Assembly (NCBI GenBank): GCA_026025795.1 | Contig: JAPEUG010000060.1 | Coordinates: 1 to 63,067 of the forward strand | Direction: 5' to 3' | DNA: 63,067 nucleotides | DNA from: Thelocarpon superellum | Lineage: Eukaryota | Shown: one piece after another, positions 1-43,205 of the stretch | How the letters are laid out: each line of letters starts with the position of its first letter | How positions within the stretch are numbered: the stretch's first letter is position 1 | Notes under the pieces: generated by a model | Database searches by the model: none | What the model saw: the letters and a program-made list of their open reading frames with translations, nothing else | What the model was told of the DNA's origin: nothing | Position numbers and translations under genes: made by a program

Positions 1-363
1 CGCCGATGAAGCCCGGGATGTAGGTAGGTGCCGTGATGAAAGATGTGTCGCAGCGTCTACGTGTCGCAGCGGATGAGTACGTGTTCATGATCTGCAATGT
101 ACTGACCGTGGGTCACTCACAAATCGATGATCGCGCCCGCCACGGCGTTGCTCTTCTTCATGAGGACGTGGCGACCATGCATCCGATGGCAGGATGGGAA
201 GCTGGCCGGGCAGCTCCATGGCCGGACTGGAGAGCACGATCTCATCCGCGCCATCTGCAGCGATGAGAGTGGGCGACAAGGCTAGGAAAGAGAGGAGGAC
301 AGCAGCGGTCACCCGGCGAGCCGAACGACACGCATGGGACGCACTAGCATCGGACAAGGGCAT
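1..363 (-). CDS. ATG15: Vacuolar/autophagic lipase Atg15, 5' portion (gene runs off the window start)
   Basis: Exon 363-121 encodes a hydrophobic signal-anchor (VTAAVLLSFLALSP). A GTGAGT..TAG intron spans 120-57. The spliced product reads ..RDHRF|TLRHIFHHGTYLHPGLHR, matching the 'F.LRHIFHHG..P.LH.R' N-terminal motif I recognise from fungal Atg15. Confidence 0.8.
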
Positions 364-26357: not shown

Positions 26358-29300
26358 TCAGGCAGCTGGCTTTATTTTGTACTCTTTCCTCAACACCCAT
26401 CGCCCCCGCAATCGCCCCGCTTTCTCGAGCACGGCGAGTTTCCGGAGCATCTCCTTGAATAACGCTTGTTGGTCCTGGGATCGACACATGCGGGTAAAGT
26501 GGTCCACCAGCATCTGGCTGCGAGCTTGGCCTCCGTGCTGGAGGAGGAAGTCACGGATGAGCTTCATCAACTCCTTGGGGCTGAGCTCTTCATCCGCATG
26601 ACCGTTGGTCCGGCTGCTCCGGCTGCTCCGGTCGCCGACCCCGCGGCGATTTTGAAGCCCGGCGAGGATGCTCGCGGAAGATGGGCCGCCGCGTCCGACG
26701 CCCCGCCCGGTACCCAAGGCTTCAGGCCGGCCTGTCACGCCGTATTGCCCCGTCCACGTCGGCGTGCCCACAGGCACGTGACGCGCCGCTTCTTGCGCCT
26801 TGAGTAGCTCCTTGGCCGCTTGGTCCGCCACCCGCTGGGCCTCTCGCTTGACCATGACCGGGTCAGCCTGCACGCCCTTCTTGCCGCGTCCGTTGACTAT
26901 CTCGTCGTGGGCCAGCGCGCTGTGCACCCCAGATCCGGCCAGGATGCCTTCCATGAGACGAGCGTCATTCGTCGAGGCGCCGGTCCCATTCGCTTCGTCC
27001 GGGTTCACGTAGTCTTCCATGCCCGCCACGCCCACCATCGCGCGTACCCGCAAGGCGTCGTCCGGCGTAGCCGCGTCCAACTGTGTTTCGGTGCCGTGGA
27101 ACATCGATCCCGTCTCCGTCCCACCCATTGCCTCGTTCCCAAACGAAAAGAGATCCTGTAGATCCTTCATCGGCACCGTCTGGCGTTGCTGTGGGTCTTT
27201 GAGGATCTTGTTGGCGAGAAATTGTTTGAATAGCTGGCGATGGTAGATCTTCTCCTCGATCGTGCCGGCCGACATGAGTCGATAGATAGTGACCTCGCGC
27301 TTCTGCCCCAGTCGCCACGCCCGCTCCCGGGCTTGCGTGTCCGTGGACGGATTCCAATCAGGGTCAAAGATAATGACCCGGTCCGCCCCCGTGAGGTTGA
27401 CCCCGAGACCACCCACCTTGGTCGTGAGCAAGAACACATGCAGGTCCGGCGACTGATTGAACTCATCCACCAGCGCCTGTCGGTGTTCGATGGGCGTGTC
27501 GCCGTCCATGCGTCGATACTGGTATCCCCCGAGCTGACGAATAAAGGCCTCGAGGATGTCGAGGACGATCTTTTGCTGGGCGAAGAGGAGTGTCTTGTGT
27601 CCGCCCTGCTTCCAGACGTCGAGCAAGGCCTTGACGACCTGCATCTTGCCTGATTTAGCCGGATCGCCGTAGCGGTAGCCGCCTTTCTTCTTGAGCACCT
27701 CCCGATCCACGAGATCCGGATGGTTGCAAATCTTGCGCAGCTTCTCGATGCCGGCAAACGATCGCATCTTGCCGTCCATGATAGCCTTGACGTCTCCCGA
27801 CGTAAGATAGCGCTCGTAGGCCTGCCGCTGTGGCTTGGTCAAGCGACAGAACAGCACCTGCTCGCTCTTTGTCGGCAAATCGGCGGCGACGTCAGCCTTC
27901 AGGCGCTGTAGCAGGAAGGGGCTGATGGCGTCCTTCAATCGTGCCGCGCACTCGACCGCTGTCTGGACCTCCAGATTCGAGGCGTTGGCGTACCCGCCGA
28001 GACGGATGGGGATCTCGAACTGATGGCGGAAGCTGAGCAGAGTGCCGAGGCGCATCGGGAAGACGAAGTCAAAGAGCGACCATAATTCCGTGAGGTTATT
28101 CTGCATCGGCGTCCCCGACAAGATGAGCCGATTCGCCGTGCGAAGCTCCTTGCAGTGAATGGTGATGGCCGTGTTCGGGTTCCGGATCTTGTGCCCCTCG
28201 TCCAGCACCGCATACTCCCAGTCGATGGGGATCAGCCGGTCGGCGTACGTCTGCAGGCCGGCGTACGTGGTGACCAAGACATGTCCCTGCTCCACCACCG
28301 TCTTCACGATGCGGCTAGCACTATCCTTCGCCTGCCGTCCTAGCGTGGGCCGCGGACGAGACCCCGATGCGGCTTCGATGTCGCGCTCCATCCGGTCCTC
28401 GCCTCGCACGTTGAGCATCCCGCTGCCGGAGGTGTGGAGGATGGACACCCGCAGCGGCGGCCACCACCGATGGAACTCGTTCACCCACTGTTTCATCACC
28501 GTGGCGGGGGTGACGATGATGATGGGCTTGGTCAGTTTCCGGCTATAATGAAGCCCAGCCAGGAAGGAGATGACCTGGATGGTCTTGCCCAAGCCCATCT
28601 CGTCACCGATGATGCCGCCAGCTTGTTGGGTGTAGAGCTCCCACAGCCACTGCGTGCCCGTCTTTTGGTATTCGAAGAGCGAGGGGAAGATGTCGCCCGG
28701 GATACGAAACCCGTCCTTGATGTCTGCATCGGATTCGGTGGGGTGGGGCAAATGCCATTCCTCGTCTGCGACTTCCTGACCCGCCGTCGCACCGTCCTCA
28801 CGCACCGGTGCTTGAGGGTCGGACGCGTCTTTATTCAGCGCGGCAGCTAAGGCGCGCGCGGCGCTGCGACGCTTCACCCACTTTCGCAGGCGTGCCTGAT
28901 ACAAACGCTCGTTTCCATCGTCGAGCCCACTCAGATCTTCTTTTCCCGAGATTGTAACTTGATCCTGGCGCTGTTTCGAGAGCTTGCGGGATTTAGCTTT
29001 TCGGTCACGCCCGTCGCTGACCGCCTCATCTTCCCCGTCGGTGGAGGTGAGCGCCTCGGAGGCGTTGGGAGTGAAGAAATCCGCCGAATCGTCGGGTAGC
29101 ACACGCCTACGGCTGTTCGTGTCTACCGATTCGTCTGTCGTATCGGGGGTGTCGTGGTTTTCATACGCCCGAGACCCCTGCTGCAGTCGCCGTCGCTTGG
29201 TTGGCCGCTCCGCGGACGCCGAAGTGACTTCGTTGGCGAGGTCTGGTACATCAGAGAAACCCGGCCGACGAAGGTTGCGATGGGATAGCAGCTCGATCGA

Positions 29301-30057
29301 CTGGTCTGTCCCGACTTCAATGGCGACAGTGTGTTCGTCGACCTCATCCCCTTCTTCGGCCTCAATGAGGGCCTCCTGCAGAGTCGAGGGCGTAGTGTCG
29401 AAGCCTGGTTCGAGCTGGGCAAATGGAGTGATCTTGCCGGTGCGAATCAGGAATTCCCGTCGAGTTTCACGTAGTTGTTGTTGATTGGCCTGCGGCTGGA
29501 TCACTTCTGGCGCATCGTCCCCCTGGTTAACGTGGCGTTGGTTCATGCGATGCTGGATCTGGCGCAAATCTCCTTCCAGGCCAGCGACGGATTGATGGAC
29601 TTGATCCAGTTCGGCCTGGGCACGTGTCGTTGCTGCGCGACCCGAGGCCTGCGAGAGACGTTGTTGGAGATTGCTCTCATCGGCACGGAGCTTTCCTAGT
29701 TGCTTGTTCACACGATCCATGCGACGATGGTCGTTCTTCTCCGCCTGCTCCGCGAGCATTTTATCCGCCTGCAGTCGGACTGGGGTCAGCAACGGCAGAC
29801 TGTACATGAGGTGAGCCCACACCAGCACTGACCTGTATCGCCACATGGCGCTCAATCTCTTCTTGGTCGCGAACATTCTCAGTCAAGCCCTTGAGGATGC
29901 TGGCTTCATCGATGAACGGAGCCTCCGCATCAAGCGGAGCGTGGACATCCATGTCTTGCTCGAGCCCCAAGCCGTTCGCGTCAGGCTTCTCTTGCGTCTC
30001 ATGCGTTACGGCGTCTGACCCGGCGTCCGACCCGTCGTCCGACCCGGCGTCCGACAT
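26358..30057 (-). CDS. RAD26: Transcription-coupled repair SNF2-family ATPase Rad26/Rhp26 (CSB/ERCC6)
   Basis: LIRTGKITPF, GGIIGDEMGLGKT, VLDEGHKIRN, RMDGDT, LLTTKVGGLGVNLTGADRV, QARERAWRLGQ, C-terminal winged-helix-like segment. One intron near 29770-29832. Confidence 0.96.
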
Positions 30058-40542: not shown

Positions 40543-41298
40543 TCATCGATCATGAACGCGCATGTACATGGGTGACCAATATTCCGTCTCGGCCGCCTGC
40601 GAATCCACCCAGACGAGTGAGTCGGCCAACAGGTAATCTACCACCGTCTGTGCCCGCGCCCGCTCCCACTGTAGGTTGGCCTGTAGCAGCGATACCGTAA
40701 CGTAGCCTAACACCTGAAGCGCCTCTAACACGGTCGACTGGTCCGTATTCAGCTCCTTGGGTACCGACCGAATCATCTGCTGCGGACCCAGCGTGACGAG
40801 GGCGAAGTCAGACCCCAGCGGCTTCAGCGACTTCACGGCGCGCACGATGTCGTCTTCGCTGACCTCGACTCCGCCACCGATGCCCCGGCCCGCCGCAACT
40901 CGGTCGCGACATTCGCCCACGCTGAGCAGGCCGCCGTTGACCGCCCGCGTCGATCGACAGACTTCGACCACGCGGACGGCCAGCTCGAAATAGAAGTCGT
41001 TCACGCTACCGCCCAGCATCTGCGCCCAGAAATTACCCTCCTTCTTGCCACTGCTGCTGGCCAACGGATCCACGCCGATGGTATGACACATGCGCGCGAA
41101 CTCGGCGCGGAAGGTCGGATTGGACCGAATGTCTTTGGCATGGGTGATGGAGAACTCGTGGAGTAGCGACTGGAAGACCGATAGCTGCGTGCTGAGGGAC
41201 GAGAGCTGTTCCGTCCGCAGCGCGTTGCCGTGTGACGCATACTGTTGCGACGTGAGCTGCCGCCGATCAAAGGCTCCAAGCCCTACGCCCTTCCGCAT
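40543..41298 (-). CDS. SNF8: ESCRT-II subunit Snf8/Vps22 (EAP30)
   Basis: MRKGVGLGAF, FRAEFARMCHTIGVDPL, DFYFELAVRVVEVC, IRSVPKELNTDQ. Start placed at cacaATG (41298) rather than the upstream in-frame ATGs. Confidence 0.93.
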   Translation of the reverse strand: MRKGVGLGAFDRRQLTSQQYASHGNALRTEQLSSLSTQLSVFQSLLHEFSITHAKDIRSNPTFRAEFARMCHTIGVDPLASSSGKKEGNFWAQMLGGSVNDFYFELAVRVVEVCRSTRAVNGGLLSVGECRDRVAAGRGIGGGVEVSEDDIVRAVKSLKPLGSDFALVTLGPQQMIRSVPKELNTDQSTVLEALQVLGYVTVSLLQANLQWERARAQTVVDYLLADSLVWVDSQAAETEYWSPMYMRVHDR

Positions 41299-41609
41299 TG
41301 TGAGATCACGGACGACCGACGGAACATGAGGTGATTCCCATAAAGTGGTGTGGCTGATCTTGCCCCAGACCTCACGTCTCGCGCCCGACATCGCCATGCC
41401 CGGCGATGAACTCGCTACGGATACTTTAGCGACCTGGTGCGCATCTTACGTCACCTTAGGGTTTCTGCGCGTTCGACGAGTTTTGCAGTCCCACGGAAAG
41501 GAATGAGGAGCTAGAAATTCCGGTAGTTCTCAATTGTCCAGCGAAGAGTTGCTCTTCTCCACCCAACTGTGTCCGTCTACGCAGATCCCCATCACCCACC
41601 ATTACGACG

Positions 41610-43205
41610 ATGGCGCCCTCCAAACGCACCGCCACGGTCAAGACGTAGGCTACCCTTTCCTCTGCCCTCTCTGCCATCCTTTCGCCGAGTGTGCAGAGAT
41701 GGTCGCGGTCCGCTCGCTGGTGTTCCTCTGTCCCCTCCATGAGGAGGTCCATGGACCAGCTCGATTCGTCCTATGGCTCGCTCCATACCCACTGGGCTTA
41801 ATTGTGCTCGGCGGGTGGGGCTGAGCCTGGGGTTTTGGGACTGAAGATCCATACTTCGTCCTCCAACGCATCATCGCACGCCGTCATTGGGGTGAGTCGG
41901 CTCTGCCGGCTACGACCTAACTGACGGATCCCGTGCCATGCATCACTCTCAATTTTCATTGAGGTCTTGTTGGCGGAATTCACTGCGTTGTCGCGTCCGT
42001 GACCTTTTGTTGCGGGCGCGTTGCCAGTCTTCCCCAATCAAAACCATCTCGTCGAGTCCCTTCATAGTCCGAGAATGTCGCATGGCAGCTGCAATTCTCC
42101 ACTCGGCGTAACCCCATTCCATCCTGCTCGCGGACAGACGATCTAATTGGGCCACTTCCGGCGTGGGTGTAGGAGCGTACCGACGCAGGATCAGATTCTG
42201 GTGCCCGAGACGCTGTTGAAGAAGCGCAAGAGTCAGGAGAAGGCGCGCGAGGATCGTGCGGCTGAGCTGGACAAGAAGCGAAAGGTGTGTGGAGTGATTT
42301 CTGCTTTCGGCCGCAGGCAATTTGGACAATGAGCAAGTGGCGGAGGACGACGGTGATGATAACACCACACATACGACTAGACCTACGGGTCGATGTTGTC
42401 GCCATTGTATACCATCTTTCGGGACTGAGGATCGTCACTGGGAGAGCATACATGACTGCGGAAGACTAAATGCAGGACCTGCGGGCTAACATGATCTGCG
42501 CTCACTAGGCTGCCAAAGAAAAGCGAGGGGTCATTTTCCATCGCGCGGAAAAGTATGTCAAGGAATACCGGGATGCGGAACGGGAGAAGATTCGCCTGAG
42601 TCGGTTGAGCAAGCAAGAGGACTCCTTCTACGTTCCAGCCGAGCCCAAGTTGGTCTTCGTGATCCGAATCAAGGGGTGAGTCAACGCGGACGGATGCACG
42701 GAACAGAGTTCTAGACAGGGCGACTGACGATTGCCCCCGTAATAGTATCAACAAGATCGCCCCGAAGCCCCGCAAGATCCTGCAATTGCTTCGACTACTC
42801 CAGATCAACAATGGGGTCTTTGTCAGGCTCACTAAGGCGACGCTAGAGATGCTCAAGGTGGTGGAGCCCTACATCGCCTATGGCTATCCGAATCTCAAGT
42901 CGGTGCGCGAGCTCATCTATAAGCGGGGGTACGGCAAGATTGAGAAGCAACGGATTCCGCTCACCGACAATGCCCTGATCGAGGAGCATCTGGGCAAGTA
43001 TGGCATCGTGTGCATGGAGGACCTGATCCACGAGATCTTCACCGTCGGACCCAACTTCAAGCAGGCCAGCAACTTCCTCTGGCCCTTCAAGCTCAGTAAC
43101 CCGACGGGCGGCTTCCGCACCCGCAAGTTCAAGCACTTCGTCGAGGGAGGAGACCTAGGCAACCGGGAGGACAACATCAACGGCCTGATCCGGCAGATGA
43201 ATTAG
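41610..43205 (+). CDS. RPL7: 60S ribosomal protein L7 (uL30)
   Basis: Exon 1 41610-41644 ([11 protein letters not shown]), then [63 protein letters not shown]. Introns 41645-42172, ~42285-42508, ~42676-42745. Confidence 0.96.
42346..42436 (+). ncRNA. Intronic box C/D snoRNA, snR39B-type (predicted guide for the LSU rRNA G equivalent to yeast Gm805)
   Basis: Box C GTGATGA 42353-42359, box D CTGA 42425-42428, terminal stem GACGA/TCGTC. Guide ACCATCTTTCGGG (42411-42423) is complementary to conserved LSU CCCGAAAGAUGGU. Internal GACC-UACG-GGTC hairpin. Confidence 0.88.

Follow-up and report, generated by a model that had tools for sequence, protein, structure and literature searches.

Autoregulation through pre-mRNA structure is known among the ribosomal-protein genes of yeast, RPL30 and RPS14B being two of them. 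In the case of RPL18B, RPS22B and RPL28, splicing is inhibited when protein present in excess attaches to a structured part of the intron or leader of its own message (PMC13232506), and for the uL30 gene RPL7B a switch of this type was described by Granas et al. in 2025 (PMC12311795). In S. cerevisiae RPL7B, whose intron 1 measures 409 nt, an enhancer or zipper brings nucleotides 49-76 into pairing with nucleotides 331-356 and cannot coexist with stem 3 of the conserved Hooks structure (positions 200-355). Overexpression of Rpl7 represses RPL7B approximately 7-fold, and most of this regulation, like most of the binding, is lost once the Hooks structure has been deleted (about 2-fold repression is left after deletion of the whole structure). 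A compensatory mutant rescues the effect of a disruptive mutation in the enhancer, and in pull-downs the intron is recovered with Rpl7a-zz solely if it has the Hooks structure (PMC12311795). Intron 1 of RPL7A possesses both a Hooks structure and a zipper stem (PMC12311795, PMC12350175), and yet in the yeast assay this gene was neither repressed nor bound by Rpl7 (PMC12311795). The RPL7A/B structure was reported by Hooks et al. in 2016 from Saccharomycetaceae and Candida sp. (PMC4937481) and re-found by Gao et al. in 2021 in 'most of Saccharomycetaceae'; the latter authors also screened introns of A. fumigatus and N. crassa, and the excerpts of their paper name no RPL7 intron among their Pezizomycotina structures (PMC8216456). 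Here we address intron 1 of the gene for uL30 (RPL7) in the lichen fungus Thelocarpon superellum, a member of the Pezizomycotina, as found in positions 1 to 63,067 of the forward strand of contig JAPEUG010000060.1 (assembly GCA_026025795.1), this whole stretch of 63,067 nt being referred to as the window.

The intron of the window resembles that of yeast RPL7B in being the first intron of a uL30 gene after a very short phase-2 exon 1 (11 nt in yeast, 35 nt in the window), in having a conserved multi-stem RNA in the 3' half of a long intron together with a non-consensus branch site, in a GAAUG..CAAUUC helix with a bulged A, matched by eye, and in a 5' arm located 40-75 nt from the donor whose partner is the 3' strand of the final stem, the pairing in the window being called Z here. 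On the other hand, it belongs to another subphylum, regulation and binding having been demonstrated in yeast and being presumed for Thelocarpon by analogy, and the Pezizomycotina intron adds a second long-range helix, P1, as well as 5' blocks that form an A/B stem and a hairpin C, the printed yeast sequence with which it was compared being one without its 3' end. RPL18B, RPS22B and RPL28 involve different proteins and RNA folds, and two crossing long-range helices are not described for them in the excerpts available (PMC13232506). Sequence blocks of the intron are conserved in relatives, the Z and P1 pairings are conserved as well, and intron 1 is retained in transcripts of relatives. We therefore lean towards the view that intron 1 carries a regulatory RNA composed of several conserved helices, its most likely homologue being the element of yeast RPL7A/B intron 1, Hooks structure and zipper enhancer together. 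The element is real, and it probably belongs, as a hitherto unreported case from Pezizomycotina, to the autoregulatory RPL7 switch known from yeast. A search of full-text literature returned no description of an RPL7 intron-1 switch in Pezizomycotina, although the alignment supplements of Li and Breaker (2017) or journals beyond those searched might still hold one. A bolder extension, which we put forward tentatively as possible rather than likely, is that the uL30 intron RNA is older than the split between Saccharomycotina and Pezizomycotina and works as a two-state, protein-sensing switch made of two long-range helices that cross, in which Z would expose the branch point and zip it to the donor while P1 would close the domain bound by uL30 and mask the branch point. 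The gene landmarks are:

41610-41644, + strand: exon 1, 35 nt, phase 2 (2 nt beyond the last full codon), the model agreeing with deposited protein P0002
41645-42172, + strand: intron 1, 528 nt, with donor GUAGGC, branch motif CUAAU and acceptor UAG
42143-42147, + strand: branch-point motif CUAAU, the sole CURAY in the 3' tail, its branch A 26 nt from the intron 3' end
42173-42284, + strand: exon 2, 112 nt

The gene occupies the + strand in four exons (41610-41644, 42173-42284, 42509-42675 and 42746-43205), and its spliced model specifies a uL30 of 257 amino acids that is identical to the contig's deposited protein P0002, labelled 60S ribosomal protein L7 of T. superellum. An earlier note on this DNA, made from the sequence alone, had described intron 1 as several times longer than most introns of the window; its length of 528 nt is correct, and the comparison made here is with the gene's other introns, of 224 nt (intron 2) and 70 nt (intron 3). 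The donor GTAGGC starts at 41645 and the acceptor TAG lies at 42170-42172; the combination CUAAU plus GUAGGC is that of the window, most orthologues having CUGAC or CUAAC with GUAYGU. A consensus-like donor, GTGAGT, is present inside the intron (41892-41897), is unconserved in the alignment and may be a cryptic site; an alternative exon 1 with this donor was rejected, as it would lack an in-frame ATG ahead of the site and 41610-41644 is exon 1 of the deposited protein.

Relatives were collected as 80 uL30 loci by scanning metagenome contigs with the exon-4 peptide. The short exon-1 type, M[AP]PK..K followed by AC|GT, is present in at least 30 loci, and in 32 of the 34 genomic loci with a placeable exon 1 (M[AP]PK...K plus AC|GT) intron 1 measures 338-560 nt, the other two having 62 and 70 nt. 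Two MAFFT alignments were built, A1 with 17 non-redundant introns and A2 with 36 introns chosen from the 66 loci with upstream sequence, near-identical loci (L043, L005, L079, L080, L052, L054, L058, L060, L025, L049, L016-18 and L065) being left out of A2; A3 is a sub-group of eight sequences with shorter introns and A4 a mixed sub-alignment of 34 sequences. The conserved blocks and nested helices are:

41693-41722, + strand: block A, conserved in A1 and A2
41716-41760, + strand: A/B stem, GCUGG (41716-41720) with CCAGC (41756-41760) around a variable hairpin, 82.5% of cells paired on A2
41756-41767, + strand: block B, CCAGCUCGAU, which contains GCUCGA (41759-41764), conserved in A1 and A2
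41837-41862 (block 41831-41875), + strand: hairpin C, with purine-rich 5' strand GGGACUGAAG, an RNAalifold helix with GC/AU exchanges, 77% paired on A2
about 41962-41980, + strand: block D, AGGUCUUGUCGGAUGAGA, conserved in A1 and A2
41963-41978 with 42030-42045, + strand: D/E helix, 13 bp with one bulged A, enclosing a variable insert, 84-87% paired
42030-42108, + strand: block E, its first half pairing with block D and its second half being stem 3
42050-42108, + strand: stem 3, with outer helix CGUCGAGU (42050-42057) / ACUCGGCG (42101-42108) and inner helix GAGAAUG..CAAUUCUC (42071-42081 / 42088-42099) with a bulged A

The earlier note had advised folding the intron, and this gave a minimum free energy (MFE) of -211.8 kcal/mol (z -4.1), which none of 100 shuffles equalled. 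RNAalifold on A1 returned 45 nested pairs, 24 of them with double-sided change in at least one sequence, and the window's own MFE fold shares the main helices of this consensus, namely P1, the A/B stem, hairpin C, the D/E helix and stem 3. When counted on A2, 81.9% of 1615 cells are paired, as against 36.8-49.0% with the partners slid, while 21 of 51 pairs are double-changed (a number reached by 6 of 500 shuffles) and 39 cells are double-changed (4 of 500 shuffles); in the D/E helix, nine of the 13 pairs show change on both sides. The most conserved hairpin of the intron is stem 3, which folds alone at -17.0 kcal/mol and whose inner helix is invariant in all 36 sequences, as is the [AG]AGAAUG...CA.UUC core of block E. 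Of the 66 loci with enough upstream sequence, 57 carry the stem-3 core, with at most one mismatch, no more than 260 nt upstream of exon 2, the nine without it being the spliced cDNAs L009, L034 and L069, the short-intron loci L033, L055 and L075, and in addition L035, L042 and L061. The outer helix of stem 3 is strong in seven of 22 group-1 sequences (the window's sub-clade). Much of the support consists of conserved pairing and one-sided (G-U) change, not of abundant double change. RNAalifold on A4 recovered nothing beyond the invariant core stem. The helices at 41963-42045 and 42050-42108 lie in the 3' half of the long intron and finish 34 nt ahead of CUAAU. A kink-turn reading of GUCG-GAU-GAGA / UCUC-AC-CGAU was replaced by a continuous helix with one bulged A. 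The sole other match to hairpin C in the window (29060-29077, two mismatches) was taken as chance, being located on the other strand within the coding region of a helicase gene, a long open frame at 26358-29882 (- strand, 1174 aa from stop to stop) with SNF2-type helicase motifs.

Comparison by eye with the intron 1 sequences of yeast RPL7A/B, as printed (PMC12311795), reveals three collinear blocks in common with Pezizomycotina:

yeast AGGCATTGTTTGTTAGTA: Pezizomycotina consensus AGGTCTTGTCGGATGAGA, matched by eye
yeast CACCGATAATTTCAT: Pezizomycotina consensus CACCGATTAAATnCAT, matched by eye
yeast RPL7A CTCCCTTCATTCGAATG-loop-CAATTCGATG (CTCCCTTCATTCGAATG..CAATTCGA): window GTCCCTTCATAGTCCGAGAATG-loop-CAATTCTCC (GTCCCTTCATAGTCCGAGAATG..CAATTCTC), matched by eye

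The first two blocks of yeast are the counterparts, by eye, of the two strands of the D/E helix. In the third, the yeast helix UCGAAU/AUUCGA becomes GAGAAU/AUUCUC in the window, with a G-C pair and the bulged A kept. Positions agree as well, since the 5' arm of the yeast enhancer occupies intron positions 49-76 and the Z arm of the window positions 39-52, directed onto the equivalent strand; the partner of the yeast arm is the 3' strand of that stem together with a few bases further downstream, and the same holds for Z, whose topology is that of the experimentally validated RPL7B enhancer.

Stem Z was the central observation of the earlier note, and its coordinates are exact throughout: CGCCGAGTG (41683-41691) pairs perfectly with CACTCGGCG (42100-42108) and TGCAG (41692-41696) with CTGCA (42089-42093), a 6-nt ATTCTC bulge lying between the two paired segments. 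The sequences involved are:

41683-41696, + strand: Z 5' arm (CGCCGAGUG plus UGCAG), forming a duplex of -21.0 kcal/mol with 42089-42108
42089-42108, + strand: Z 3' arm, formed by the 3' strand of stem 3
42151-42163, + strand: alternative partner of the Z 5' arm in the MFE fold, a comparable partner being significant in three of nine orthologues tested

As a zipper, Z comprises 9 + 5 bp with linkers of 38 and 34 nt, and this total of 72 nt falls inside the range of 42-85 nt derived from zipper stems of yeast introns (PMC12350175); Z leaves the branch point free and puts it approximately 72 nt of chain from the 5' splice site. Out of 1000 dinucleotide-shuffled versions of the intron, 7.0% contained a perfect long-range stem (at least 9 bp, arms at least 300 nt apart); the proportion was 3.7% when the arms were confined to the first 100 nt and the last 130 nt, respectively. 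Because 3.7-7% of shuffles yield such a stem, Z taken alone is only marginally beyond chance, and its significance comes from comparison with relatives, not from the stem itself. In the MFE fold the Z 5' arm pairs with 42151-42163 instead of 42100-42108, and forcing Z costs 7.8 kcal/mol in MFE and 6.5 kcal/mol in ensemble energy; a partner between branch point and acceptor was discarded as a conserved feature, given that only three of the nine orthologues were significant. CTCGGCG-like words occur three times in intron 1 (41808-41814, 42102-42108 and 42157-42163), giving the Z 5' arm three possible partners, of which the word at 41808-41814 provides the best duplex of all (-28.4 kcal/mol) but sits in a variable hairpin. 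An inverted-repeat listing of the intron contains the Z pair together with both local alternatives that the earlier note had named as competitors within 41668-41702; these hairpins exist, but the 5' 60 nt fold unremarkably (-16.8 kcal/mol, z -1.8), and the conserved competitors of Z are stem 3 and P1 instead. The positions truly contested between Z and stem 3 in the window are only 42088-42093 and 42101-42108.

The earlier note had further proposed comparing both arms across relatives. In this regard, the 3' arm is conserved because it is the 3' strand of stem 3, while the 5' arm varies in sequence and retains its complementarity in 20 of 30 introns. In this assay the best duplex between the stretch from donor to P1 start and the 3' strand of stem 3 was compared with 300 dinucleotide shuffles of the 5' segment, the sample consisting of L063 and L068 together with the full-length rows of A2, 28 in number (six others, partial and lacking the 5' region, were dropped); the 20 introns have p<=0.05, the mean z is -2.97, and the window itself scores -21.9 kcal/mol (z -2.5, p 0.023). 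When every other window of the respective intron was offered as a target, the strand of stem 3 came first for Z in 12 of 30 introns and was among the top three in 16 of 30. The 5' arms differ widely by lineage, for example CGCCGAGUG..UGCAG in the window, CUCCGAGAGAAGAGCUGCA in L059 and GGGUGAAGAACUGCAGC in L006, and in most orthologues the arm ends 0 nt from P1. On A3, Z forms a 21-pair helix with 83.9% of cells paired versus 30-55% when slid, and six cells are double-changed (2 of 500 shuffles). At column pair 45/379 of this alignment, an A-to-G change at 379 goes together with a change from U to C in the Z arm (UA 6, CG 2), whereas in stem 3 the same change is merely a tolerated wobble (UA 6, UG 2). 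Z is the local version of a conserved alternative helix, and with its conservation and the compensatory change in the eight-sequence sub-group the core idea of the earlier note stands up to comparison, its interpretation as a whole being supported in part. In that sub-group (L006, L031, L037, L038, L056, L023, L047 and L040; introns of 338-396 nt) the loop of stem 3 is enlarged by an insertion of 20-25 nt (AUGAGAGCCAGCAGACCACUGU), and P1 is continuous over 12 bp, CAGUCGGUCCGC with GCGGACCGACUG, running into a CUGAC branch motif. A GCUGAU word located about 25-30 nt past the donor is conserved in many group-1 introns (L003, L050, L004, L062, L063, L059 and others) and is complementary to the UCGGC in the tail of stem 3; in the window this place is taken by CUGCCAUC, with CGCCGAGUG used instead at a site further 3'.

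The second long-range helix, P1, is made of:

41697-41713, + strand: P1 5' strand (AGAUgGUC plus GUCCGC), directly abutting the Z arm and paired in the window's MFE fold
42130-42144, + strand: P1 3' strand (GCGGAC plus GACgAUCU), overlapping the first bases of the branch motif

It pairs 41697-41704 with 42137-42144 and 41708-41713 with 42130-42135 (duplex -20.9 kcal/mol), and in the window it covers C42143 and U42144 of the branch motif. P1 is significant (p<=0.05) in 23 of 31 introns with a mean z of -2.75, and in nearly all introns tested its 3' strand borders on the CURAY motif or runs into it; on A3, P1 and stem 3 are 96.2% paired, and none of 500 shuffles reaches their number of double-changed pairs or their covariation score. 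The P1 linker of about 52 nt is within the yeast zipper range, yet the helix overlaps the branch motif. The 5' strands of Z and P1 are continuous with each other, and the two helices cross (Z5 < P1-5' < Z3 < P1-3'), so that they do not fit into one nested fold. By analogy with yeast RPL7B, free uL30 would bind the folded domain around stem 3, and its binding would favour a closed state of stem 3 plus P1 over Z. In the closed state P1 would close the whole domain with stem 3 intact and cover the 5' part of the branch motif, the branch site CUAAU and the donor GUAGGC, both presumably weak, would be poorly used, and the ensuing poor splicing would lead to retention of intron 1 and to less uL30 protein.

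Evidence from transcripts is available for relatives of the window. Three contigs, L016, L017 and L018, are 98.4-100% identical to the genomic loci L023/L025, keep the whole of intron 1 and lack exactly the 171-nt intron 2; these are RNA-derived molecules from which intron 2 has been removed and in which intron 1 is retained. L009 (92-98.5% identical) is a fully spliced form and, compared with genomic L025, confirms the intron-1 boundaries in that lineage. Altogether, 26 contigs have an uninterrupted coding sequence from exon 2 to the stop; the motif scan covered 21 of these and found the intron-1 motif upstream of exon 2 in 20, while intron 1 is spliced in four of the 26 (L009, L027, L034 and L069) and L057 is ambiguous.

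Database searches and previously reported motifs bear on whether the intron might encode an RNA of its own. No Rfam family matched the + strand of intron 1 even at E<=10, and the whole window has no match at gathering score; a SNORD67-like match on the minus strand of the intron (17.6 bits, E 1.6) was rejected, its D box being CCGA and its orientation antisense within the intron. The A1 and A2 consensus sequences hold no conserved C/D or H/ACA boxes, and the idea that intron 1 hosts a snoRNA was rejected for lack of them. A blastn search of intron 1 against a plasmid collection gave no match, as expected. Intron 2 (42285-42508), in turn, hosts a C/D-box snoRNA at about 42349-42430 (+ strand), like yeast snR39/snR59, with C box GUGAUGA, D box CUGA, terminal stem GACGA/UCGUC and a guide, ACCAUCUUUCGGG, that matches the Rfam consensus; its score of 24.9 bits is below the gathering score of 40, and the segment is detected by blastn in several loci, such as L006, L023, L025, L047, L049, L073 and L075. 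This agrees with the conserved snoRNA intron described by Lim et al. in 2021, whose account, in the excerpts available, treats only that intron (PMC8476143). Li and Breaker described in 2017 two motifs from Pezizomycotina introns, 'rpl7' (about 30 nt) and 'rpl7-L8-S3', and proposed L7 binding and an effect on splicing (PMC5640933). Their rpl7 primers encode TVPTQD and YVPEEPK and map to exons 2 and 3, and their spliced product of 253 nt equals exon 2 (112 nt) plus the first 141 nt of exon 3 (42173-42649); from primers and product, as given in the excerpts, the rpl7 motif lies in the snoRNA-hosting intron 2, not in intron 1, and it may be part of the intron-2 snoRNA. The rpl7-L8-S3 motif has two hairpins and is also found in L8 and S3 genes (PMC5640933), and when compared by its description it possibly overlaps in part with the purine-rich hairpin C.

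Upstream of the uL30 gene, a divergently oriented neighbour at 40546-41445 (- strand) is an EAP30/Vps36-family (ESCRT-II) gene (Pfam E 1.8e-58), and a recurring antisense peptide suggests that a Vps36-type neighbour also precedes RPL7 in L004, L012, L038, L049 and L056.

Several observations weigh against the interpretation of intron 1 as a homologue of the yeast switch. The structure tested on A2 had been derived from the window itself, the covariation score on A2 was reached by 55 of 500 shuffles, further pair types were not above shuffles, and many helices are simply invariant in sequence. Z is not the predicted ground state in the window (-204.0 versus -211.8 kcal/mol), and its target ranks 8th of 127 windows within the window's own intron. 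No significant Z was obtained in L050, L078, L064, L062 and L015 (p 0.27-0.98), the first four of which are among the window's closest relatives. The invariant UCGAGU of stem 3 (42052-42057) can also pair with the invariant GCUCGA of block B in 18 of 22 group-1 sequences, therefore the exact competing pairs in the window are uncertain. Z and P1 might moreover coexist as a pseudoknot rather than alternate, because a linker of 21 nt is long enough for this. The homology to yeast, which we consider most likely, was recognized by eye on printed sequence, and uL30 as the ligand, as well as the choice of the 'on' state, would follow from the yeast system alone. As for the transcripts, 17 of the 20 contigs with a retained intron have no genomic counterpart from the same species (L016-18 being those that do), and these 17 could be genomic DNA of lineages without introns 2 and 3; L068, for example, runs on into the downstream region.

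Among the alternatives, an unlikely one, and the strongest of the four considered, is that the fold is a constitutive splicing aid that compacts a long intron and joins donor and branch point with no sensing of any kind. It would fit with the common occurrence of zipper stems among the long introns of yeast ribosomal-protein genes (32 of 88, PMC12350175), with the unregulated behaviour of yeast RPL7A despite its Hooks structure and zipper, and with P1 plus the nested fold as the predicted ground state. Compaction, however, requires neither some 60 nt of near-invariant sequence, with GAGAAUG..CAAUUC in 36 of 36 introns, nor two crossing long-range helices that are both conserved; P1 over the branch motif should hinder U2 binding rather than assist it, and transcripts that retain intron 1 with intron 2 spliced were assembled repeatedly. 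The conservation might instead reflect an independent stable noncoding RNA, snoRNA-like or other, that acts in trans, which we rank behind a constitutive aid and hold to be distinctly unlikely. Long conserved ribosomal-protein introns often host snoRNAs, as intron 2 does here, the predicted RNA of the RPL7B first intron persists in yeast cells (Hooks et al., PMC4937481), and the two-hairpin rpl7-L8-S3 motif, present in L7, L8 and S3 introns across Pezizomycotina, may overlap the middle of intron 1 (PMC5640933). Against such an RNA stand the lack of + strand Rfam matches and of C/D or H/ACA boxes reported above, the position of GGAUGAG inside a covarying helix, and helices that reach the branch point and a segment 40-70 nt from the donor, that is, splicing signals and not the ends of a processed RNA.

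It is improbable, in our judgement, that the intron is a genuine switch which senses something other than uL30, such as another ribosomal or assembly protein, temperature or co-transcriptional kinetics. The analogy that points to uL30 leaves room for this, as does the approximately 2-fold repression that persists in yeast after full deletion of the Hooks structure (PMC12311795); conversely, the pull-down of the yeast intron by Rpl7a-zz requires that structure (PMC12311795), and among the loci examined the element is seen specifically in uL30 genes. We give very little credence to the notion that Z in the window is a chance inverted repeat and that only the surrounding conserved structure is functional. 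The shuffle frequencies of 3.7-7%, the threefold occurrence of CTCGGCG-like words, the missing Z in the nearest relatives L050 and L078 and the use of another partner in the MFE fold would all be in keeping with chance, but equivalent complementarity, mostly abutting P1, is present in 20 of 30 orthologues with differing sequences, and the position of Z matches that of the yeast enhancer.

A description of the RPL7B switch of yeast appeared no earlier than 2025, and the switch was taken to be restricted to budding yeasts, whose high sequence identity offers few compensatory changes in support of the model. If intron 1 of Pezizomycotina RPL7 is homologous to it, this feedback loop would be ancient and widespread in Ascomycota, the divergent 5' arms would represent natural compensatory evidence for the zipper, and the P1 helix that masks the branch point would suggest how repression may be executed. 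Were the ancient two-state switch to be true as well, it would rank among the most deeply conserved feedback RNAs of eukaryotic ribosomal-protein genes, with hundreds of natural variants for its dissection. For annotators, the element offers a reason for the odd first intron of 340-560 nt in fungal RPL7 and provides a marker for intron-retention isoforms in fungal transcriptomes.

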